DNA of 64,000 nucleotides from Bdellovibrionales bacterium (GTDB lineage Bacteria; Bdellovibrionota; Bdellovibrionia; Bdellovibrionales; UBA1609), in the NCBI GenBank assembly GCA_965261545.1, contig CBDHDF010000002.1, positions 32,001-96,000 on the forward strand, read 5' to 3'. Made by a program: the position numbers and the translations under genes. Numbering within the stretch: the first letter of the stretch is position 1; every line of letters starts with the position of its first letter. Under the pieces are notes generated by a model. The model saw only the letters and a list, made by a program, of their open reading frames with translations. It was not told where the DNA came from and did no database searches. Of this stretch, positions 46,198 through 57,576 are shown in pieces.

Positions 46198-46524
46198 GTG
46201 GCAGCTAAGAGAGTCAACTACTATGTGACAATAAATGGTAAGTCACCTTTCTTAGAATGGACTAACAATTTGGATATTAAAAGCCAGGTTATTGTTGATC
46301 GCTTTATACAGAGGGTTGCTCAAGGTGGTGCTAAAAAATCAATAAAAAGTTTAAAGGATGGTGTTTTTGAAATTAAGATCCCACATGCTTCTGGGTTGAG
46401 AGTGTATTTTGGAGAGGGTGGTGACCAACTCATTCTTCTCCTAATTGGTGGAAACAAAAGAACACAAAGTAGAGACATAAAAAAAGCCAAGGAGTATTGG
46501 AGTTATTATGGCAAACAGAAGTAA
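46198..46524 (+). CDS. RelE/ParE-superfamily toxin (addiction-module killer type, toxin first)
   Basis: GKSPFLEW, GVFEIKI...GLRVYF, LLLIGGNKRTQSRDIKKA. Confidence 0.88.
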   Translation: MAAKRVNYYVTINGKSPFLEWTNNLDIKSQVIVDRFIQRVAQGGAKKSIKSLKDGVFEIKIPHASGLRVYFGEGGDQLILLLIGGNKRTQSRDIKKAKEYWSYYGKQK

Positions 46525-46822
46525 AAGCTATGATGAAGTATTAGCTAAGAAATTTGAAAACCCTGAGTACGCCAAAAGCTACTTATTAAACATCGTTGAA
46601 GAAGAAGGGCTTGCTGTGGATACAGCTCTTCGTGAAACGATCAAAGCAATGGGGCTTCAAAGCTTTTCTGAAAAATCTGGCCTTGCCATTCAAGCTGTCT
46701 CCGATTTTGTGGCAAATAGACAAAAATGGAGTACAGATAAACTTTCAAAACATATTGGAGAAGTTTTTCATCTGAGAGTAAAATTATCTCTCGAAAACTC
46801 TGATCCAAGCGAAGTGGCATAA
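46508..46822 (+). CDS. Cognate HTH antitoxin
   Basis: Overlaps the toxin; NPEYAKSYL...ALRETIKAMG plus an HTH-like segment. Confidence 0.75.
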   Translation: MANRSKSYDEVLAKKFENPEYAKSYLLNIVEEEGLAVDTALRETIKAMGLQSFSEKSGLAIQAVSDFVANRQKWSTDKLSKHIGEVFHLRVKLSLENSDPSEVA

Positions 46823-47076
46823 TGAAGATATGCCCATTCATCTTGTTGCGTTCTCGGCCGCAACAAGATTTTTGCCCTTGATTCCGCAACACATACGCAA
46901 CAAACGCCTAGGTCAGTTGGACGTATCTTCAAGGTTTTCTTGACGTTGGTTTGAAGTGGGAAAGGGCCGTATTTGCTGAATTTTCATGGACTTAGGGGAG
47001 AGCTTCGTCTTTCAAAGGTTAATGATTACAAAATGTTATCAAAATTAACCTTTCACCTGTTGGAGAAATTTGTCTT

Positions 47077-47144
47077 TAGACGCGCCGGACTCAAAATTCG
47101 GTTCTGGTAACAGAGTGGGAGTTCGATTCTCCCCGGAGGCACCA
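47077..47144 (+). tRNA. tRNA-Leu(CAA) 3' fragment, probably an att site; 5' acceptor strand missing
   Basis: TAGACGCG-CCGGA-CTCAAAA-TTCGG, long variable arm, GGGAGTTCGATTCTCCC, CGGAGGC-A-CCA; no GCCTCCG upstream. Confidence 0.8.
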
Positions 47145-47167
47145 AATGTCACTTCACAGCATCCACT

Positions 47168-48508
47168 TCAATCTTCCATTTTCCACATTTTTTCATTGAG
47201 TATTTCTGCAATTCTTTTGGTATCCATCTTCGGTTTTCCACAGTAGTGATGCTCGTTGACATCTCGGCCATGGCCAAGAATGGATGCTCTTTCATCCAAA
47301 GACATGCCAGCTTCTTTGGCTGTCAGATTAAACCCTCGGCGCATATCATGCCTTGTGTAGGGCACGCTGTAGTCTTTCCGAACCTTTTTACCATCTTTAT
47401 ACTTCCTCGTCGCTGGGCTGGAACTCTCTTTAGCCTCTGCCAAACCAGCAGCAATAAATAAAGCTCCCCAGGCACCACTTACAGAGTCTACTCTTCGATA
47501 GACAGGCTTTGGACTCTTGGTCGATAAACGACAATCTACCATTGTAAAGATAAATCGTGCATCCACTGGAACCAATTTGCCTTGTTGGCTGGGAGCGTAA
47601 CCCACAACCCGGTGCTTCATAGCTCTTTCCACCAAAGGTTTGAGCATATCCAAAACATCCGTAGGAATGATTGTCTCTCTGGTCTTTCCATATTTGGGTG
47701 ACCATTGCATTCCATGCTTGGTGGGACACTCCTTGGGTTGAATCACCCAATGACCTGTCTCCCAATTGATATCATCCACTTCTAAATACAACCACTCCTT
47801 TGTTCGCGCCCCTGTACGAAAAAGCCCATAGGCAAATTCTTTGATAGGGAAGCCGTAGCGATGTGTGTAGTTTGCGGATAACAATTGAGGAAGAATGTTT
47901 TTTGAAGGGGCCACCGTTCTTGCCCTTTCTTCTTTGGGCACTGAAATGGCTTCCACATCCACCCAAGGGTTTTGAGGAATTAGTTTTCTCTTTTTAAGCC
48001 ATTTAAACAAACGCTTTATGGCATTGAGATCATTAAAAGCAGTGACTCTTTTAATCTCTCCCGCCTTCACACGCTTAAGTAAATGTCTCCGAAAATTATA
48101 AGCCTCATATTCCGTAAGTTTGTGAACATAATTGACCTTAAACTTTTTCTCCAACACGGCAGCGACAGGAAGCATTCTCGTTTTTTCCGTGTGAAGATAA
48201 TTGGGTGAAGCCCCTTCAATTTGAAGGTGCTCTAAATAGTCGTTGATAGCCATTTCAAAAGTTGAAAGCTTGCTAGAACTCTCTTGGAACTTTTCAAGTT
48301 CTTTTTCTGTAAAAAGACCCTTGGCAAGTTCCTTTTCTTTTTTACTGGCATTTTTTCTAGCTGATTTTTCATCGTTACCAGGAGCACGACCATAAAACCA
48401 CTTTCCATTGGGGAGTTTAAATTTCCAGTACCAACCCCATTTGCGTTGATGCACATAAACTCTTGGAGTGTATTCAAAAGATACTTCAAGTTGTACTAAT
48501 TCGTTCAT
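47168..48508 (-). CDS. Tyrosine recombinase/integrase
   Basis: TGART, RHDMRR, LGH...HHY; stops 24 bp from the tRNA-Leu CCA. Confidence 0.9.
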   Translation of the reverse strand: MNELVQLEVSFEYTPRVYVHQRKWGWYWKFKLPNGKWFYGRAPGNDEKSARKNASKKEKELAKGLFTEKELEKFQESSSKLSTFEMAINDYLEHLQIEGASPNYLHTEKTRMLPVAAVLEKKFKVNYVHKLTEYEAYNFRRHLLKRVKAGEIKRVTAFNDLNAIKRLFKWLKKRKLIPQNPWVDVEAISVPKEERARTVAPSKNILPQLLSANYTHRYGFPIKEFAYGLFRTGARTKEWLYLEVDDINWETGHWVIQPKECPTKHGMQWSPKYGKTRETIIPTDVLDMLKPLVERAMKHRVVGYAPSQQGKLVPVDARFIFTMVDCRLSTKSPKPVYRRVDSVSGAWGALFIAAGLAEAKESSSPATRKYKDGKKVRKDYSVPYTRHDMRRGFNLTAKEAGMSLDERASILGHGRDVNEHHYCGKPKMDTKRIAEILNEKMWKMED

Positions 48509-48804
48509 AGTCTTTCTCCTTTAACCCGATCACTCTGTTTTCTAGAAAGTTGCAGAAATGAATCAAGGTCAGATTTTAGAAAGACTAGACCCTCCTTAGT
48601 AAAGTCACAAAAAGTCAGCCTCCTTGATCTCAGTGCATGATAGCGTATGCTATCAACGCTGCACCGACAGTAAAAGGCGGCTTCTTTTTCATTAAATACA
48701 TGGTGATTAAACACCATTATTCTTTCTATTTGATTGTCAAAGAGCGAGTCTTCAGTAGACGCACAGGACGACGGACTGGTGATTTTTTTATTATCATAAA
48801 GCAT
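48505..48804 (-). CDS. Excisionase-like winged HTH protein
   Basis: NEKEAAFYCRCSVDSIRY...VFLKSDLDSFL; AAGGAG RBS; 4-nt overlap with the integrase. Confidence 0.7.
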   Translation of the reverse strand: MLYDNKKITSPSSCASTEDSLFDNQIERIMVFNHHVFNEKEAAFYCRCSVDSIRYHALRSRRLTFCDFTKEGLVFLKSDLDSFLQLSRKQSDRVKGERL

Positions 48805-49302
48805 AGTATTTTCTCCTTAAAAGATCACGAAAAAGGTGAACGTTCGTCTAAAGATGAACGGCCGTATAAAAATGAGTGGCCGCATAAATCTGATAAACAA
48901 TGAGCGCAAAAAGTGTTCTTCCCGAATTTTTTGTCATCGGACATAAATCTTTCTTAAAAAAGATATTAAAAAATTTCCTGAATGCTTCATGAATACCTCC
49001 TTATGGGTATAGTTTGGTTGGGTGAGCCATATAGCTCACCGGCGGGGAATTGTTAATGATTTGATGAATGTATCTGGTAGGTGTTTGTTGAATAGAATGA
49101 TTGAATATCGCCTTCATTTTTTACAGCACGAAGACGAGGAGTGAACCGTCCGGGGGGGGGAGTGAATACGAGGAACCCCCCAATTTTGAGAATTTTTTGT
49201 TGACGACGGGCAAAAAAATCACTTTTAGCCCTTTTCAAAAAGGCCAAAAAGGATGTAGGCCATGGCCGTTCACAAAAAGTCCAAATAAAGAAGGAGTCAG
49301 AA

Positions 49303-49581
49303 ATGGCAAAGTTTAAACACTTAACAAAAGAAAAACTAAATCATGTCCGCAATCGCCTTTTTGAAGTGTCCAGTGGCCTCAATGGTCTAGGCTCTTTGTT
49401 TGAGTCTCAATCAGTACACTTTTGCCCCTCACCAGATGAGCTTTACGGCATTGGACAGCTCTTGAAGCAACTCTCCCGTGAAGTTGAGGTTCAGGAAGAC
49501 ATCCTAAATTGTGGTTATGATAGTCAAGCCGTGAAGAAGAATTTGGGGGAGACACCAGTGTTAGACTCGAAGAAAAGTTGA
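49303..49581 (+). CDS. Hypothetical helical protein (92 aa)
   Basis: AAGGAG RBS upstream of ATG; no recognised domain. Confidence 0.55.
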   Translation: MAKFKHLTKEKLNHVRNRLFEVSSGLNGLGSLFESQSVHFCPSPDELYGIGQLLKQLSREVEVQEDILNCGYDSQAVKKNLGETPVLDSKKS

Positions 49582-49683
49582 AAAAAGGGAGGCAGAAATT
49601 ATCTTGCCTCCTAGCCTTTCTCTTCCTTCTCATACCCTGCCACGTCCTGCCCTCTCATTGAGATCATTACACCGAGGACTTCA

Positions 49684-49860
49684 TTAGAAATCCAACTTCT
49701 TACCAGTCAGTTTTTCGGCGAACCGTTCCGATGAGGAAAGCCCCTTGGCAATCCGAGTGAGGGCCATTTTTTCTATCTTTGAAAAGATGGTGGGAGCCGC
49801 ATAACCTGATCCTAAAAGCAATAAAATGGTGACAATAGCCTTAATAATACCTGTATTCAT
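49684..49860 (-). CDS. Small single-TM protein (58 aa, not in the ORF track)
   Basis: AAAGGAGG RBS; MNTGIIKAIVTILLLLGSGYAAPTIFSKIEKMALTRIAKGLSSSERFAEKLTGKKLDF*. Confidence 0.65.
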   Translation of the reverse strand: MNTGIIKAIVTILLLLGSGYAAPTIFSKIEKMALTRIAKGLSSSERFAEKLTGKKLDF

Positions 49861-50262
49861 TGGTCTTCCTCCTTTGGTAAAACCACCAGTGGTTGGTTTA
49901 TGTTTATTTTCTATTTGGTTTTAAGCCCAGTTTTGGGCTTTGTTCATAGCAGTTTTCAAGCTGCCTTATCTTATGGCCACCATGGAGCCGGCCGTTTTGT
50001 CAATATTTCTTGAATCATTATTTTGTGGAATGAACGGCCGCATAAACTTGAGCTTCATTTTTCGTAACATTCATGGGGGCGCCTTGCTTCCCCACCCACG
50101 CCCATGAATCTTATCTAGGCCCCCACTTCTTTGCACGAAGCAACTCGGTGGACAGCTTCGCTGGTCTATATAATTGGCCTCTTTTAGTTACTCTGGACTT
50201 TTGATGGTATTTTTGTCATGTATGATTCCGATACAATAAAGGATAAAGCAATAACATTATTG

Positions 50263-50449
50263 GAAGGTGATAAGATGAGTGGCCGTTGAATAGATTGGTA
50301 ATTTTAATTCCGTGAAGTAACATGGTCTTGAGCTTTGGATCGAACCCACGCATGTACCTGCACTCTGAGTGTATGGACGTATAGTAAGTTGACCTATTTT
50401 CGCTTTAGAATTTATGGCAAAATCCCAAGGCTCTAGTTTTATCACCTTC
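50263..50449 (+). ncRNA. Candidate IS110 bridge/seek RNA (second copy at ~51967-52153)
   Basis: Non-coding left end closed by an 11-bp stem GAAGGTGATAA/TTATCACCTTC; contains short matches to target and donor flanks. Confidence 0.55.
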
Positions 50450-50477
50450 TTTTTTTCTAACAGAAAGGAGGAGTCAT

Positions 50478-51680
50478 GTGGATATTATTTATAGTTCTGT
50501 TTGTGGAATAGATGTTCATCAACATATGTTGATGTGTACGATTGTCAAAGTGGAAGACGGTAAGAAGAAGTTTTTCACAAAAGAGTTCAAGAATTTTCCA
50601 AAAAATTTTCCTAGAATGCGCTCTTGGATGAAGCCACATAAGGTTGAGAGAGTTCTTTTTGAGAGCACAGGGATTTATTGGAATTCTTTATACGATGATT
50701 TGACAGAAAAAGGTTATGAAGTAGATGTTATCAATGCCTTTCATGTCAAAAATATTACTGGTAAAAAAACTGACGTGTTGGATAGCCAGTGGATTGCAGA
50801 GCTTGGTGCTTGTGGTCTTCTAAGAGCTAGCTTCATTCCTCCACGTGAGATTCGTTCTATTAGACTTTTGGCTCGTTATCGTACAAAAACGATCCGCCAA
50901 ATATCTTCGGAACAAAATCGTATGTATAAGGTTCTTGAATATTCAGGCATTCGTTTAACCTATGCAATGTCTAAAGCTGACTGCGTATCTGGTATGGCCA
51001 TGATTCGTGCCATAGCTAATGGAGAGAGATCAGTTTCTAAATTGATGTCTCTTGCCAGAGGGTCTTTACGTCAAAAGACCGAAGAATTTTCTTACGCCCT
51101 GTCGGGAAAGATGACGGAAGAAAATCGTTTTGTTCTTCAACGCATTCTTGATCGAATAGATTTTTTGAAAAAAGAATGCTCTCAAATTGAAGAAGAACTT
51201 TTCATTCGTATGAAACCCTATGAAAGGCAGTGGCATCTACTCCAGACTATACCTGGAATTGACGAATTAAGTGCAGCGCTTTTGATTGCAGAAATAGGAG
51301 GCAATGTGAAGTCTTTTAAAAATAAAGGAAATTTTTGCTCCTGGATGGGGATTTGCCCATCCAATAATGAGAGCGCAGGAAAAAAAAAGTCTTCACGAAC
51401 GAGGAAAGCGAACACATATGTGAAATCGTTGGTATGTGAGATGGCCAATAGTGCTATTAAGACGAATTCACAATTCAAAGGCAAATACCAATCACTTGTT
51501 ATAAGGCGTGGGCACAAGAGATCAGTGATTGCCGTTGGTCACAAAATGATGGGAGTTGTTTATTCAGTCATAAGTAATGACACCCCCTACAAAGACCCTG
51601 GAATTGACTATGAAAAGCTCATGGTGAAAAAAAATGCACCAAGGTGGATTAGAGCGTTAAAAAAGTATGATTTCATGTAA
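50478..51680 (+). CDS. IS110-family DEDD recombinase/transposase
   Basis: GIDVHQ, FESTGIYW, KTDVLDSQWIA, TIPGI, NESAGK. Confidence 0.95.
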   Translation: MDIIYSSVCGIDVHQHMLMCTIVKVEDGKKKFFTKEFKNFPKNFPRMRSWMKPHKVERVLFESTGIYWNSLYDDLTEKGYEVDVINAFHVKNITGKKTDVLDSQWIAELGACGLLRASFIPPREIRSIRLLARYRTKTIRQISSEQNRMYKVLEYSGIRLTYAMSKADCVSGMAMIRAIANGERSVSKLMSLARGSLRQKTEEFSYALSGKMTEENRFVLQRILDRIDFLKKECSQIEEELFIRMKPYERQWHLLQTIPGIDELSAALLIAEIGGNVKSFKNKGNFCSWMGICPSNNESAGKKKSSRTRKANTYVKSLVCEMANSAIKTNSQFKGKYQSLVIRRGHKRSVIAVGHKMMGVVYSVISNDTPYKDPGIDYEKLMVKKNAPRWIRALKKYDFM

Positions 51681-52181
51681 TGTAGGATGATTTAAAAACT
51701 CGGACATTTGAAAAAATTCGAAGAACGGATAGTGGATTCGTGCGTCCAAACTACCCCGGAGATTCATAGTAACATTCATGGGGGCGCCTTGCTTCCCCAC
51801 CCACGCCCATGAATCTTTCTAGGCCCCCACTTCTTTGCACGAAGCAACTCGGTGGACAGCTTCGCTGGTCTATATAATTGGCCTCTTTTAGTTACTCTGG
51901 ACTTTTGATGGTATTTTTGTCATGTATGATTCCGATACAATAAAGGATAAAGCAATAACATTATTGGAAGGTGATAAGATGAGTGGCCGTTGAATAGATT
52001 GGTAATTTTAATTCCGTGAAGTAACATGGTCTTGAGCTTTGGATCGAACCCACGCATGTACCTGCACTCTGAGTGTATGGACGTATAGTAAGTTGACCTA
52101 TTTTCGCTTTAGAATTTATGGCAAAATCCCAAGGCTCTAGTTTTATCACCTTCTTTTTTTCTAACAGAAAGGAGGAGTCAT

Positions 52182-53382
52182 GTGGATATTATTTATAGTT
52201 CTGTTTGTGGAATAGATGTTCATCAACATATGTTGATGTGTACGATTGTCAAAGTGGAAGACGGTAAGAAGAAGTTTTTCACAAAAGAGTTCAAGAATTT
52301 TCCAAAAAATTTTCCTAGAATGCGCTCTTGGATGAAGCCACATAAGGTTGAGAGAGTTCTTTTTGAGAGCACAGGGATTTATTGGAATTCTTTATACGAT
52401 GATTTGACAGAAAAAGGTTATGAAGTAGATGTTATCAATGCCTTTCATGTCAAAAATATTACTGGTAAAAAAACTGACGTGTTGGATAGCCAGTGGATTG
52501 CAGAGCTTGGTGCTTGTGGTCTTCTAAGAGCTAGCTTCATTCCTCCACGTGAGATTCGTTCTATTAGACTTTTGGCTCGTTATCGTACAAAAACGATCCG
52601 CCAAATATCTTCGGAACAAAATCGTATGTATAAGGTTCTTGAATATTCAGGCATTCGTTTAACCTATGCAATGTCTAAAGCTGACTGCGTATCTGGTATG
52701 GCCATGATTCGTGCCATAGCTAATGGAGAGAGATCAGTTTCTAAATTGATGTCTCTTGCCAGAGGGTCTTTACGTCAAAAGACCGAAGAATTTTCTTACG
52801 CCCTGTCGGGAAAGATGACGGAAGAAAATCGTTTTGTTCTTCAACGCATTCTTGATCGAATAGATTTTTTGAAAAAAGAATGCTCTCAAATTGAAGAAGA
52901 ACTTTTCATTCGTATGAAACCCTATGAAAGGCAGTGGCATCTACTCCAGACTATACCTGGAATTGACGAATTAAGTGCAGCGCTTTTGATTGCAGAAATA
53001 GGAGGCAATGTGAAGTCTTTTAAAAATAAAGGAAATTTTTGCTCCTGGATGGGGATTTGCCCATCCAATAATGAGAGCGCAGGAAAAAAAGTCTTCACGA
53101 ACGAGGAAAGCGAACACATATGTGAAATCGTTGGTATGTGAGATGGCCAATAGTGCTATTAAGACGAATTCACAATTCAAAGGCAAATACCAATCACTTG
53201 TTATAAGGCGTGGGCACAAGAGATCAGTGATTGCCGTTGGTCACAAAATGATGGGAGTTGTTTATTCAGTCATAAGTAATGACACCCCCTACAAAGACCC
53301 TGGAATTGACTATGAAAAGCTCATGGTGAAAAAAAATGCACCAAGGTGGATTAGAGCGTTAAAAAAGTATGATTTCATGTAA
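52182..53382 (+). pseudogene. IS110 transposase, copy 2, frameshifted (A9 to A7 near 53084-53090)
   Basis: Matches copy 1 except for a 2-bp loss in a homopolymer; could be a sequencing artefact. Confidence 0.85.
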
Positions 53383-53483
53383 TGTAGGATGATTTAAAAA
53401 CTCGGACATTTGAAAAAATTCGAAGAACGGATAGTGGATTCGTGCGTCCAAACTACCCCGGAGATTCATAGTAACTATTCAGG

Positions 53484-55720
53484 GGGAATAGGAAGGATAA
53501 AAGGTCTTTTTTAGAAATCCGCAAAGCATGTCAGTAGAAACTGCAGAGGCCAGCGAAGACTCCAATAGGATTTTTGGGCTTAATTGATGGTTTAGAGTGG
53601 TGTTGGGCAAAGTTTGAGGAGAATGGGGCCAGAAAAATATGTTGTTTTGTGGTGTTGAGACGTACCTCTCCATGAACATAGAGGGAGGAGATGATACAGC
53701 TCTATGCGTCATTCAGGACAGTCAGAAGTTAAGAAAATGAATCGAAGCTCTCACTTTGTGGTGGGCCTCTGGGTGGCCATAGGCTTGGAGGTTGTGAGGT
53801 GATGCCGAGATGAGTAAGAATTTTTTCAATGACCTGAGGGTCTTCAATGGAAGAAATGACTTTTACTTTTCCACCACACTCGTGGCAAGTTTCAATGTCT
53901 ATATCAAAAACTCGCTTGAGCCTTTGAGCCCAGGTCATTCCTGAAGATCTTTTCTTGTTTGGCCTTGACTCTGAATCTTCCAAATCTAAGGTTTCTTCCC
54001 TTGAGTCTTCACCGATGGAGGCTTCAATTTGGGGTTGAGGGACGATGGAGGATCGATATTTGAAATTGGGCGCGAAAACTCCGTGGAATCTTGTGAGATT
54101 CACTCGTGGTCGAGGGATAAGGGAAGCAAGACGGCTAAGGAAATCAAGGGGGTCCAGAACGATATGAGTGGTTCCATTGTCATAGGCAGTTTTGAGTTTA
54201 TAGACAACTTGGCCCCTGGTATTTAATGAGAGCCTTTCTTCACTGAGGCTGGGTCTTGAAATATACCGGCATACCCTCTCTCGCTTTTTTTTCTCATGGG
54301 CTCTACATGCGACTCCTCCATGGAGGCTAAAGCCAGAATATTTGGCGAGAAATTCACTGTTAAAATCTTTACCTCTTGCTGATACAGTGTGAAGAGTCAG
54401 TGCTTTTTTCCCTTTGTGAGGACCGAGAGCTATTCTATAGGTGACTGATGATCCGTGGACTTGGTCCATACTGTCAGAGGCTTCCATAGCCAGATACTCT
54501 TGCCCTGTTTCATCCCTTAGGATGAGTCCCTTTTTTTCTAGGTGCTTGACCACTCTATGAGCTATGCTCACCAAGATGTGATCCATTTCACTTTGGGTGG
54601 GTGGAGTTATGGGGTGAAAATGAGGTTTACCTTCGGGGAATGTGTACACTCCATCCAAATACATCATATGGAAATGAATATTGAGATTGATGCTTCCGCC
54701 AAAGCGTTGAATGAAGGTAACAGAACCCGCCTTGGCTCCTGATTTTTTGGTGAGACCAGCTTTTTTGATCAGGTAGGTGGAAATGGCTCGATGAACGATG
54801 GCTAAGACCTCTCCCATGACCTTTGGATTTTTGGCAAAGAGGAATCTTATTTGAAAAGGAAAGCTAAGGACCCATTGTCGTAGGGGTTTTTGGGGAAAAA
54901 CTTCATCAACTAAGTGAGCTGCACTTTCAGCCATTCTTCTTGCGCCGCAGCTTGGGCAGAAGCCTCGACGCTTGCAGCTAAAGGCCACAAGCCTTTCATG
55001 GTGGCAAGATTCACACTGGGTTCTCAAGAAACCATGGGCAAGAATTCCACACTTGAGAAACTCATCGAATTCTTTTTTAACGAACTGGGGAAGGCCATTT
55101 TCATGCTCATTTTCTATGTGCCGGTAGAAAGTGAGTAGATTTTCTTGCACCAATTTGTAAAGGAGAGTCTTTTCAGGGCGGTGTCGTTGGTATTTGGGAG
55201 CATTGTTAAAGATATGGGGATCAACAAGGGCCATGGCCTTTGTTGGAAGGCAAATTCAAGGCCAACTGTACCCAGTAAGTCACCAATTGAGCCACAAGGT
55301 GGGAGAGTTCATCACTGGGTGGTGTCATCACGGCATTGAAAGAGGAGCCCCATTAATCAAGGTACTTGAACACTTATCTTTAAAAAACTCTGAATCTTGC
55401 CTTGAATCCTTACTTTTTTGGTTTTTTTTGGTATCGGGAGTGGCTATGGGCGAGTCCACAACCTCCCCCAATGAATACTGCCCTGCGTAATAATGAATCT
55501 TCACCTTATCCATCCCAATTTCTATCTTATGCACCAACCTCTTGATAATCTTAGCTTGAACTTCAGGGTCGCCTCCCTCCCCAAGAACTTTGTTCGCAAG
55601 CTCCAAAAAGGACTGGTAACTTTGAAAATCCACCGGCAACTCTTGAAGACCCACATATCCATTTTTCAGTTCATCAAGCCTTTCCTGAGCCACCTTTTTC
55701 GCAGCTTCAAGTTTGGACAT
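53484..55720 (-). mobile_element. IS91/ISCR-like element, copy 2, with a shorter captured flank
   Basis: Colinear with 24134-26369; identity stops abruptly at GTTTGGACAT (55720). Confidence 0.85.
53729..55234 (-). CDS. IS91-family transposase
   Basis: Same as 24378-25883 except for a few C-terminal substitutions. Confidence 0.95.
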   Translation of the reverse strand: MALVDPHIFNNAPKYQRHRPEKTLLYKLVQENLLTFYRHIENEHENGLPQFVKKEFDEFLKCGILAHGFLRTQCESCHHERLVAFSCKRRGFCPSCGARRMAESAAHLVDEVFPQKPLRQWVLSFPFQIRFLFAKNPKVMGEVLAIVHRAISTYLIKKAGLTKKSGAKAGSVTFIQRFGGSINLNIHFHMMYLDGVYTFPEGKPHFHPITPPTQSEMDHILVSIAHRVVKHLEKKGLILRDETGQEYLAMEASDSMDQVHGSSVTYRIALGPHKGKKALTLHTVSARGKDFNSEFLAKYSGFSLHGGVACRAHEKKKRERVCRYISRPSLSEERLSLNTRGQVVYKLKTAYDNGTTHIVLDPLDFLSRLASLIPRPRVNLTRFHGVFAPNFKYRSSIVPQPQIEASIGEDSREETLDLEDSESRPNKKRSSGMTWAQRLKRVFDIDIETCHECGGKVKVISSIEDPQVIEKILTHLGITSQPPSLWPPRGPPQSESFDSFS

Positions 55721-55865
55721 GCGAAAGAAAAAAGTAGCGTAGCCTGATAGAGTCCCAACTCTTCATCCCTAGACTTGGCTTAGATAGTGTAACCGCTTTT
55801 CAAGCCTATGCCAGTTTATCTCCCATTCAAGATGTCTCCGGTATGGACCATTGCGGTGAGTTATT

Positions 55866-55881
55866 TGGTCGGAGCGACGGG
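55866..55881 (-). other. tRNA-Pro-like 3'-end fragment (possible att core)
   Basis: Minus strand CCCGTCGCTCCGACCA; followed by three CGGCCATCA repeats at 55924-55952. Confidence 0.55.
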
Positions 55882-56289
55882 GTGGGGGTTAAATGGCTAA
55901 AATCATTAAGTCTGACAAGGCGTCGGCCATCAGCGGCCATCAGCGGCCATCAACTCTTGCACAAGTTCTACACCAATTAATATCCTCCACAGATCAAAAA
56001 TAGAAGGGCTGCCTAAAAGTATCCAATACAGGTCTTCAAAAAAGCTATGACTGCGTTTCACCAATGCATCTCCAAGGGTGGACCTAGGGATTCCAAAAAT
56101 TTTTTCAATATCCCGAAATGTTTATAAGCTTAAAGCAAAGAAGCCAATGAGGGAGCAGGTCAGTTGCCAAGTGGAAAAACTAATGACACCCTTGTCTATT
56201 TGCCACTTCTTTTTAACATCTTGTTATTATTGAGGAATCCTCCGGACGCCAGTGAAGTATCCACTACAGCTATTCAAAATCATGTGACC

Positions 56290-57174
56290 TTAGTACATCT
56301 CTCTCCACGTTTTCTTGGAGAGTTCTGTTTGAACGCCCCTCGCTGCTGGATCAACGAGACTCAGATATCCAGATTTGTCTTCAAAGTTCTCCGGAAAAAC
56401 TCCCAAACACAATTTTTCTGTATGCTTCGATCTGTATAGTATTGCTTGAATTCCGGCGTTGTAGACAATGTGTCCAAATATTTGGGATGACGATGGGATT
56501 GTGAATAAGGAGGGTTGAGCAGCCCAGTTGTGGTCACGCATTATATTTTTTAGTTGAGCCGGAGTGCGGACATTTTGTGGCTCGTTTAACCTCAGCTTCT
56601 TTGCTTTCTTTTTTAATTCATCAGGGACTGGGATTTTTTTAATTACATTAATGAAGGGGCTAAGTGCTTTCTTATCAGTGACATCCAGAACGAGATCAAG
56701 TTTTCCGCTTAATTGAGTAGCTGAATACGACACAAGAGAGCCTGTGAATTCCTCCCTTTTAATTTTCCTTTTATCTGGAGCATTAGAAGAAAATTTCTCT
56801 GCCATAGCTGTGTCATGGTTGGAAGCAATATAAAGGCAAGAAAATGGAGGGTACTTCATTGGGTCAATCTGTCCGAAGTTGAATCTCCCTCCAATGCTAT
56901 GCAATCTACTCCCTGCCGCAGAGAGTGGATTGTTGTTGTATTTCTGAGTTAATACCCTGAACCATTTATCGAACTTATAGCTAATGGCACCTTTAATGAG
57001 TGCCTTCTGGACCTTGTTCGCTAACTTTGATCTCTCGTTTGCATAGTAAGAGTACTCTTCCCAGTAGAAGTCAAATAGGCTTTCATGTTTCTCTCTCCAC
57101 TTTTCAATGTCGTGAGCAGAAAAACTATCCAGAAGGATAAGGGGTTGTTCAGTATGGGAATCAGATATTGACAT
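56290..57174 (-). CDS. RES-domain toxin (putative NAD+-consuming)
   Basis: WFR, GGRFN, CLYIA...TAMAE, AILYRS (R-E-S pattern). Confidence 0.85.
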   Translation of the reverse strand: MSISDSHTEQPLILLDSFSAHDIEKWREKHESLFDFYWEEYSYYANERSKLANKVQKALIKGAISYKFDKWFRVLTQKYNNNPLSAAGSRLHSIGGRFNFGQIDPMKYPPFSCLYIASNHDTAMAEKFSSNAPDKRKIKREEFTGSLVSYSATQLSGKLDLVLDVTDKKALSPFINVIKKIPVPDELKKKAKKLRLNEPQNVRTPAQLKNIMRDHNWAAQPSLFTIPSSSQIFGHIVYNAGIQAILYRSKHTEKLCLGVFPENFEDKSGYLSLVDPAARGVQTELSKKTWREMY

Positions 57175-57183
57175 AGCTTAGAA

Positions 57184-57576
57184 TTACGGCAAATTCCCTT
57201 CCATGGCATCAAAAATAAAGCTCTTTAGTTTTTTATACCTTCCGAAGCGAATCATGTCTCGTGGAGTTAAGTTTCCAAGCATAGGGTTTTCCATTTTGAA
57301 CCATAGCGTGGTCTTATCTGTGTCTCCATTAAAGTTACTGGCAACGATTTCACAAGTATTAGCGATTTCCTCCAGCTTTGTCTTTAATAATTGAGGTACT
57401 CTAGCGCCGCTGTACCGGACTGAGTTCTCTGAAACATTCGCGATCTTTGCGACGTCATTGTTTGAAAACTCAAAAAAGTTGGCTACTTTTTTCAAGTCTG
57501 TTGTCCCCTGTCTATAAAAGGGCATATACTTACTGGTTGGAACAGTAGCAAATAAATCCTTCTGAGAAGCTTTCAT
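57184..57576 (-). CDS. Xre/MbcA/ParS-type antitoxin
   Basis: HTH-like N-terminus and LWFKMENPMLGNLTPRDMI C-terminal motif; AGGAGG RBS; directly upstream of the RES gene. Confidence 0.85.
   Translation of the reverse strand: MKASQKDLFATVPTSKYMPFYRQGTTDLKKVANFFEFSNNDVAKIANVSENSVRYSGARVPQLLKTKLEEIANTCEIVASNFNGDTDKTTLWFKMENPMLGNLTPRDMIRFGRYKKLKSFIFDAMEGNLP

Follow-up and report, generated by a model that had tools for sequence, protein, structure and literature searches.

The closest described counterparts of the system reported here are the IS110-family elements IS621 and ISCro4. In the sections of the literature compared (PMC11208160, PMC11208158 and 10.1101/2025.05.14.653916), these elements encode a recombinase with DEDD and Tnp-serine domains and carry an RNA in a long left end, in which a target loop precedes a donor loop; a 2-bp core and handshake bases complete the arrangement, and all of these features recur at the present locus. 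The handshake pattern is known for IS621, and the compared passages of the same report describe its LDG guide as 8 nt long, covering the 7-nt left donor plus one core base (PMC11208158). The seekRNAs of the IS1111-group elements ISEc11, ISPa11 and ISKpn4 place a top-strand match before a bottom-strand match and accompany sub-terminal inverted repeats, both as found here, but they lie downstream of the gene, whereas the RNA described below lies upstream (PMC11187229, passages compared). IS621 and CazIS110-1 are reported to excise a single strand as a circle (10.64898/2026.08.31.748434 and 10.1101/2025.10.25.684509, in the parts compared), and the IS621 circles are proposed to become double-stranded by the action of the host (10.64898/2026.08.31.748434).

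The window analysed here is a stretch of 64,000 nucleotides from a Bdellovibrionales genome (G000), and features lie on its forward strand unless stated otherwise. Positions 50068–53472 are a tandem dimer of an IS110-family element, in which copy 1 (50068–51770) and copy 2 (51773–53472, with a frameshift near 53083) flank the core of the right-end/left-end, or donor, junction (51771–51772). The recombinase of copy 1 (50478–51680) has 400 aa, compared with about 330 in IS621 and ISCro4, and consists of domains PF01548 (DEDD RuvC-like) and PF02371 (Tnp, catalytic serine), with residues D12, E62, D99, D102 and S299. Its best structural matches, the closest solved structures, are IS621 and ISCro4, at ~20% identity (E 9e-15). 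As is characteristic of the IS110 family, the element is multi-copy and target-specific and has neither terminal repeats nor a target duplication beyond the shared core. The RNA in the long left end (410 nt, against 90 nt for the right end) places it in the IS110 group, not in IS1111; the absence of long sub-terminal inverted repeats that marks the IS110 group does not hold, covarying, asymmetric repeats of 7–10 bp being present. The same RuvC-region motifs are seen by eye in the ISfinder elements ISSsu10, ISArsp3, ISAfe3, ISAzo28, ISSto4, ISGka2 and others (Supplementary Table 1 of PMC11208160, as far as compared), for which no guide or donor analysis was found in the literature searched; the 'ISGka2' of PMC8024623 is, from the part consulted, an unrelated IS701 element.

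The genome holds dozens of near-identical copies (55 left-end and 37 right-end matches), with RNA identical to that of the window in 33 of 38 RNA copies, and 10 of the 37 right ends are joined directly to another left end. A tandem array of four to five copies at G000:C7:121207-128203 shows short right-end duplications at some of its junctions. The end-to-end junction also occurs in short-read contigs, which collapse copies and whose four runs represent one sample, together with two A absent from copy 2; because the contigs carry both missing A, the frameshift near 53083 is probably a homopolymer assembly error. An A-tract just past the catalytic serine codon (51372–51381 and 53075–53083) comprises 7 A in 18, 8 A in 3 and 9 A in 14 genome copies, and 9 A in the short-read contigs. 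This variation is likely an assembly error, judged from the sequences compared, and may instead be slippage control of the recombinase. Database homologues of 314–317 aa are truncated at a similar place.

A 65-bp segment of the left end (50147–50211, with TATAAT at 50169–50174) is common (~95%) to an IS256-containing repeat that is very abundant in this genome; it lengthens the left end by ~100 nt relative to most homologues and may be a source of a promoter. Elsewhere the window contains what we take to be a short toxin-antitoxin-like gene pair (46198–46822), a phage-type integrase with a small upstream gene (47168–48804) and a RES-domain/Xre-type pair (56290–57576), and the region around 46198–57576 looks like a genomic island.

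An initial annotation of the window had proposed a bridge RNA upstream of the recombinase, and comparison among homologues bears this out: positions 50263–50449, with putative ends at the closing stem, are on fold and HMM evidence a real bridge-RNA gene of the multi-copy IS110-group element. The closing stem of 11 bp is perfect (50263–50273/50439–50449), as the annotation had stated, and 0 of 200 shuffles folded as stably as the region (z = -2.79). The homologue set comprised 160 loci plus three from relatives, 150 of them with a usable upstream region. Upstream regions matched an iterated RNA HMM in 140 of 151 cases (the window counted) and downstream regions in 2 of 133; shuffled and reverse-strand regions gave 0 of 151 each. 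Rebuilt without the window row, the HMM matched only the two window copies (E 2e-4). Matches with all anchors numbered 131 of 139 and were grouped in 90 clusters. Compensatory pairs support 7 of the 8 pairs in the target-loop stems, and the donor-loop stems were not recovered by RNAalifold on the same alignment. The two-loop structured RNA is conserved among orthologues, as expected of a bridge RNA. Rfam gave 0 matches at E<=5 over 49900–50520, a single-protein locus scan of genomes gave no matches, and among relatives of the source genome a 32–35% match occurred in 3 of 60. Homologues of the clade come from Proteobacteria, Actinobacteria, Firmicutes, Chloroflexi and others; all of the covariation derives from those of ~30–48% identity, because the relatives at 65–80% came without DNA context here.

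In up to 90 homologue clusters, three guides of this RNA show covariation with insertion junctions, and their orientation is the reverse of that in IS621; the slot names LTG, RTG, LDG and RDG are assigned here after IS621. Every segment quoted in the initial annotation is present: TGAATAG at 50287, AGTAACAT at 50316, TGAGTGT at 50366, ATAGTAA at 50381 and the dimer junction at 51762–51779. By themselves the matches are modest evidence: 20,000 dinucleotide shuffles produced TGAATAG 581 times, ATAGTAA 441 times, both together 27 times and a TGAGTGT-like match with one wobble 1,881 times. The covariation that the annotation had called for was found in homologues for TGAATAG, ATAGTAA and the AGTAACAT region as a target guide.

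Target guide 1 (LTG slot; 50287–50295) contains TGAATAG; over 7 nt it complements the target sequence to the right of the core, and it has one mismatch facing the core itself. Between the 5′ side of loop 1 and the right flank, 3.16 of 5 positions are complementary, against 2.08±0.10 in the null (n=67, ends fixed with the donor guide), taking the best of three registers with the same freedom in the null; a fixed-register test is weak (2.3–2.5 of 7 against ~1.8) owing to variation in the length of the loop. Target guide 2 (RTG slot) and two handshake bases occupy 50314–50322; the part read is in practice GT+AA (50317–50320), and the handshake bases (50321–50322) equal the first two bases of the left end. 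Across 32 clusters with a unique candidate and motif-only anchors, the 3′ side of loop 1 equals the left flank at 4.03 of 5 positions (null 1.34±0.19) and the target-loop handshake equals the first two left-end bases at 1.84 of 2 (null 0.72±0.12). The segment AGTAACAT, which had been read as a guide spanning the donor core, thus sits in the target loop and represents the second target guide together with the handshake bases.

Donor guide 2 (RDG slot; 5 nt plus core, and two handshake bases) lies at 50381–50389. It includes ATAGTAA, whose proposed reading of the donor is upheld: the 3′ side of loop 2 equals the right end at 4.61 of 5 positions, against 1.77±0.13 (71 of 90 clusters with a candidate, ends from DNA motifs alone). 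The donor-loop handshake is weak (0.97 of 2 against 0.64±0.06, n=67); the handshake statistics exclude a circular set whose sites were chosen with those bases. The right end itself (51759–51770) comprises an arm of the sub-terminal repeat and the 5 nt that donor guide 2 reads. TGAGTGT, proposed as the other donor guide, falls in HMM insert columns, in the loop and 3′ arm of the inner hairpin of the donor loop (50354–50378), and an IS621-like reading of it as LDG was dropped after alignment. The two target guides covary with opposite target strands, as in other bridge RNAs, and all four tests of the IS621 orientation were null (n=22). From the reversed covariation and these null results, the geometry is that of IS621 with the element turned round: relative to IS621, the element is inverted with respect to the recombination site, so the top-strand guide comes first, and the reversed guide order suspected in the initial annotation holds. 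On the comparative evidence, the RNA would be a bridge RNA by function but is not of the IS621 type by two tested features, as neither a bottom-strand-first guide order nor a pair of donor guides on opposite strands of a contiguous 14-bp donor was found here.

What the element targets is an IS66-family terminal repeat; the IS66-family element that carries it is 1,715 bp long, encodes an IS66 transposase (PF03050) and has 8-bp target duplications. IS66 ends start with GTAA, and IS66 elements make 8-bp duplications. Targeting of the ends of other mobile elements is also seen in some IS1111-group members, such as IS4321/IS5075 at Tn21 repeats. In the present genome, 15 of 33 IS66-type ends are occupied by the IS110 element, and a 7-of-7 match to the complement of TGAATAG stands at 16 of the 27 non-tandem right junctions, which together with the covariation supports the annotated role of that segment in reading the target. 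In the window, the right core and a remnant of the IS66-type repeat lie at 53473–53483, adjoining an IS91/ISCR-like element (53484–55234, reverse strand) that is a neighbour outside the system; the remainder of the IS66 host and its duplication were not found.

The junction sequences place exchange at a core of 2 bp, AA, seen at the left junction at 50066–50067 (TT on the strand equivalent to the IS621 top strand). The initial annotation had given the core 5 bp. The 37 right-junction 5-mers are GTAAC (32), GTAAG (4) and GTAAA (1), and the 55 left-junction 5-mers include GTAAC (45), TTAAC (2), ACAAC (1) and three other types (7); positions 1–2 follow the left partner and position 5 the right. 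AA alone is invariant at off-target junctions in the genome, and insertions into the element's own sequence, reconstructed by eye, have only AA in common with the donor. Homologue cores are AG (49) or AA (18; n=67), the reverse complements of CT and TT, AG thus corresponding to the CT core of IS621 and ISCro4. Element boundaries derived from copy-to-copy divergence in the multi-copy genomes G061 and G063 agree with this placement. The core appears to have 5 bp because donor and IS66 end both carry GT before it and C after it, and the IS66 end is therefore restored at the right junction upon insertion; the restored end would again be a target, giving rise to tandem arrays. The left flank TTTTTC, previously taken as part of the target, is one of 21 distinct left flanks whose base make-up is that of empty target ends, and GT+AA alone is therefore read on the left side. 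A homologue in G061 (the record of L017), with 64 matches in one chromosome, has a very loose target with little beyond CT+AA. The comparative data thereby demonstrate conservation of the RNA, its three canonical guides, their orientation, the core and the target.

The fourth slot behaves differently from its IS621 counterpart: it matches a distal site on the strand of the other donor guide, not sequence beside the core. This donor guide 1 (LDG slot; 50344–50351) is same-sense to the distal donor site (50094–50101) and identical to it at 8 of 8 positions, so that the RNA would base-pair with the site's bottom strand. Both this guide and the IS66-type terminal repeat as target had been missed by the initial annotation. 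Complementarity of the slot to the first 7 nt of the left end was found in none of 7 registers, with or without G–U pairs (n=75, left ends fixed with the target guide), and a 9/11 complement between RNA 50345–50355 and the left end beside the core was dropped, as no covariation is seen in homologues at that place. Widening the scan brought out a same-sense excess (5.76 against 5.46±0.07); its source is an 8-nt site that follows a short GC hairpin and precedes a conserved TGAAA-type motif. The distal site, 27–34 nt inside the left end, was spotted post hoc, and the hairpin, match and register tests came afterwards; its exact match in the window arose in 8 of 20,000 shuffles, before allowing for the wide search.

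The left-end DNA hairpin lies at 50075–50093 (no strand assigned), as indicated by homologue conservation and the window fold. A hairpin is present in 60 of 75 clusters, against 14.2±2.8 in shuffled sequences; inside right ends the count is 8 of 57, and left flanks have it in 14 of 67. As searched, it is absent from the other 15 of 75 clusters; it starts at +7 to +9 in 52 of the 60. The same-sense match after the hairpin reaches 5.30 of 8 (null 4.06±0.12, n=60), or 3.37 against 2.53±0.09 over the variable 5 nt, and 5.39 against 4.06 with the motif as anchor (n=71); the reverse-complement control was null. The LDG geometry of IS621 would place the first guide base opposite left-end position +7 (LE+7). 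Along an axis defined by the DNA hairpin alone, the match peaks at LE+7 (4.37 of 8 against 3.11±0.14), falls to intermediate values at +6 and +8 and comes close to the null at +5 and +9. An unbroken run of 8 positions carries the excess, with null flanks apart from one isolated position, and the result repeats in genomes and metagenomes separately (n=36 and n=24), with 0 of 3000 permutations as good in each.

Permutation nulls ignore relatedness, and kinship is addressed by the sister-pair and neighbour tests alone. Among 28 sister pairs on the protein tree, the own site scored above the swapped one 17 times, below it 3 times and equal 8 times (one-sided sign test ~0.001); against the site of the nearest scaffold, the own site was better in 34 cases and worse in 6, with 20 ties. 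The 11 AA-core clusters nearest to the window give a weak signal (4.09 against 3.73; 337 of 3000 permutations at +7 and 87 of 3000 at +8), and the LDG match is imperfect in general (a mean of 4.4–5.3 of 8, where the other donor guide reaches 4.6 of 5). An intramolecular RNA partner for the slot was not detected (5.77 against 5.75). These sequence comparisons show that the fourth slot and the distal site are statistically linked.

The motif that follows the distal site forms an inverted repeat with the motif lying 5 nt ahead of the right-end core. In the window, the left arm of this sub-terminal repeat lies at 50104–50112 and its partner at 51759–51767, and in homologues the outer, unselected 4 nt of the arms are complementary at 2.49 of 4 positions, against 1.33±0.11 (n=55). 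These asymmetric repeats and the left-end hairpin distinguish the element from IS621; relative to IS1111, the difference is that one arm lies 5 nt from the core and the other ~33–37 nt away, behind the hairpin.

The model that best accommodates these observations, and one to which we give somewhat better than even credence, is that the bottom strand of the junction folds into a mimic of duplex donor DNA, a single-stranded circle or a cruciform in a circle serving as donor. In it, a two-loop bridge RNA programs the adjacent IS110 recombinase. Comparative data show that target and donor are read on the strand opposite to that used in IS621, that the target loop reads the opening bases of the IS66-family terminal repeats (7 nt of one strand, GT+AA of the other) and that exchange takes place at a 2-bp core. 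The donor loop would read the right end (5 nt plus core) and the distal left-end site, both on the bottom strand. Across the right-end/left-end junction, this strand would fold back, with the sub-terminal repeats paired and the GC hairpin capping the other side. The distal site would then lie opposite the 7 nt beside the core (50068–50074, reverse strand), a putative displaced 'left donor' strand, and stand in for the second strand of the duplex donor of IS621. As these 7 nt form only 1.75 of 7 pairs with their fold partner, the apposed, hardly complementary strands would constitute a ready-made bubble. The copied-out single-stranded circle, or a cruciform of the supercoiled circle, could then enter the target without second-strand synthesis: one strand would be transferred and the host would carry out the repair. 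One strand alone would be transferred because exchange of the surrogate strand would leave hairpin-capped ends. Transcription of the RNA, its pairing, the folding of the DNA and the strandedness of the donor are what we infer from these patterns.

Fold prediction for the window places 51799 opposite 51779 (LE+7) and 51806 opposite the core, which matches the register predicted from IS621. The predicted energy is unremarkable (-9.5 kcal/mol; 58 of 500 shuffles as stable), and homologue junctions fold with a mean z of -1.72, below -2 in 21 of 57. A replication-strand bias was not seen, with 12 of 27 in G000 and 29 of 58 in G061, where skew was sampled at 20 places and is noisy in the first megabase. 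The bottom strand here is the equivalent of the IS621 top strand, which is the strand cut first and, in two preprints, the one copied out as a single-stranded circle (10.64898/2026.08.31.748434 and 10.1101/2025.10.25.684509, passages compared). The model would share with CazIS110-1 (10.1101/2025.10.25.684509) and IS621 (10.64898/2026.08.31.748434) one-strand copy-out, single-strand insertion and tandem by-products; it differs in the folded donor, which the passages compared do not describe, 'hairpin' giving 0 matches in the CazIS110-1 text available. Counting against the model, a double-stranded donor was ~20-fold better at one junction of CazIS110-1 in the part of that report compared (10.1101/2025.10.25.684509).

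The fold-back donor has to be weighed against other readings of the same data. An inverted bridge RNA might read a double-stranded donor through one donor guide, a half-match by design, with the distal match and hairpin serving otherwise, for example in RNA-guided binding over the element's own promoter or as a protein-bound landmark. This reading, unlikely in our judgement, is a serious alternative. A donor half-site suffices for excision and off-target insertion by IS621 (10.64898/2026.08.31.748434, passages compared). The copy inserted in an RNA gene at the donor-guide sequence is a right-end-only match, promoter-like hexamers surround the distal site in some homologues (by eye), and the LDG match is weak. 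However, a half-match leaves unexplained the LE+7 register, the 8-nt width, the 7–8-nt spacer and the covarying asymmetric repeats that close the same fold, and a consensus scan for sigma-70-like promoters over 51680–52200, spanning the end-to-end junction, gave 0 sites; IS621 forms a promoter across this junction, and the locus may differ from it in this respect. Alternatively, the RNA could pair with the distal site in duplex DNA bent or looped by protein, without a fold-back strand or cruciform. The same distal-site covariation fits this arrangement, the folding energy is weak and inverted repeats can covary as protein-binding sites; we nevertheless regard it as improbable, since both donor guides would need to open the same strand, at two sites ~26 nt apart, with a polarity foreign to the IS621 complex (PMC11208158, as far as compared), and the conserved hairpin would be left unexplained.

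A further possibility is that the distal similarity is spurious, stemming from common descent, local duplication or GC content, and that the RNA is an ordinary bridge RNA with a decayed fourth guide. Discovery was post hoc, the AA-core subgroup gives a weak signal and both segments are C-rich, but the restriction of the excess to 8 positions with flanks null apart from one isolated position, the preference for own over sister (17 to 3) and nearest-scaffold (34 to 6) sites, and recurrence in two collections make an artefact very improbable. Least credible, to the point of being barely tenable, is the arrangement of the initial annotation, with a 5-bp core and TGAGTGT and ATAGTAA as donor guides: its quoted sequences exist and GTAAC stands at 45 of 55 left and 32 of 37 right junctions, yet off-target junctions narrow exchange to AA, and TGAGTGT lies in a variable hairpin, such a match arising in 9% of shuffles.

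Derived copies occur in several forms. Non-autonomous mini-IS110 copies of ~110 bp retain the fold along with both ends, and their sub-terminal arms show a compensatory change (G000:C6:3544-3650, C11:725851-725957, C10:576454, C2:289234 (-), C2:233621 (-) and C3:20865), and some are located at IS66-type ends; the distal donor site is altered in two of them, which speaks against the fold-back donor. Two left-end fragments (G000:C6:183445 (-) and C11:1052989) end at ~+36, just past the distal donor site, where the fold would place the surrogate core, and they give no showing of cleavage at that point. At G000:C10:1009933-1021313, an IS110 copy lies inside the bridge-RNA gene of another, exactly at the donor-guide sequence, a half-match self-insertion.

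A 55-bp palindromic MITE is built from the left end of this element, and both its ends resemble the IS66 terminal repeat (G000:C2:618570-618619 (-), G000:C6:99928-99977 and about seven copies at G000:C2:345417-383726). Exact 8-bp target duplications at two copies suggest that the IS66 enzyme moved the MITE and that an IS110 left end can serve as an IS66 end. Ready-made composites, in which IS66 carries IS110 at both ends in inverted orientation and the outer 8-bp flanks match, lie at G000:C7:211537-216661 and C7:343399-351652. Of nine scored IS110+IS66 composites, three have direct 8-bp duplications, two have no match and four consist of a pair of IS66 copies bearing IS110 at both ends, with outer flanks that agree on inspection; four further cases had no far end within 12 kb. 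On 8-bp duplication evidence, movement of such composites by the IS66 enzyme is indistinguishable from later insertion, and that proposal was set aside.

In the 'peel and paste' pathway of IS200/IS605, an HUH enzyme that works without a guide RNA moves a single-stranded circle with a sub-terminal DNA hairpin as landmark, using single-stranded targets with a lagging-strand bias. If the fold-back donor holds, the present element would resemble these in its single-stranded circle and sub-terminal hairpin landmark; it differs in its DEDD enzyme, its RNA guides on both target strands and the lack of an observed strand bias. It is not an IS200/IS605 member, having neither the HUH transposase nor the lagging-strand bias. 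In the literature searched, with figures, bioRxiv supplements and most subscription papers outside its scope, a fold-back donor, an inverted left-end bridge RNA and IS110 targeting of IS66 ends are undescribed; a prior description of the fold-back donor is possible. What appears new is a fourth guide that matches a distal site behind a hairpin instead of the donor beside the core.

It is disputed whether IS110 circles insert in single- or double-stranded form (10.64898/2026.08.31.748434 and 10.1101/2025.10.25.684509, in the parts compared), and this clade offers a sharp prediction, its donor making sense only as a folded strand. More tentatively, and with rather less than even confidence, a widespread clade may have a donor built for single-stranded DNA, a pre-melted duplex mimic with both guides on one strand, whose circle integrates unreplicated. 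A fold-back donor would explain why such elements could escape detection or prove inactive when a screen reconstructs a contiguous donor with 25 nt on each side of the core; from the passages compared, one such screen keeps only models with four guides near the donor core (10.64898/2026.10.21.760802). The locus is a clear case of an RNA-guided element aimed at the end of another transposon while restoring that end. If true, the proposed mechanism would amount to an RNA-guided 'peel and paste' pathway and to a programmable enzyme that inserts single-stranded DNA circles or cargo into double-stranded targets, and recognition of the donor as a folded single strand would be a new working mode for enzymes of the gene-editing type.
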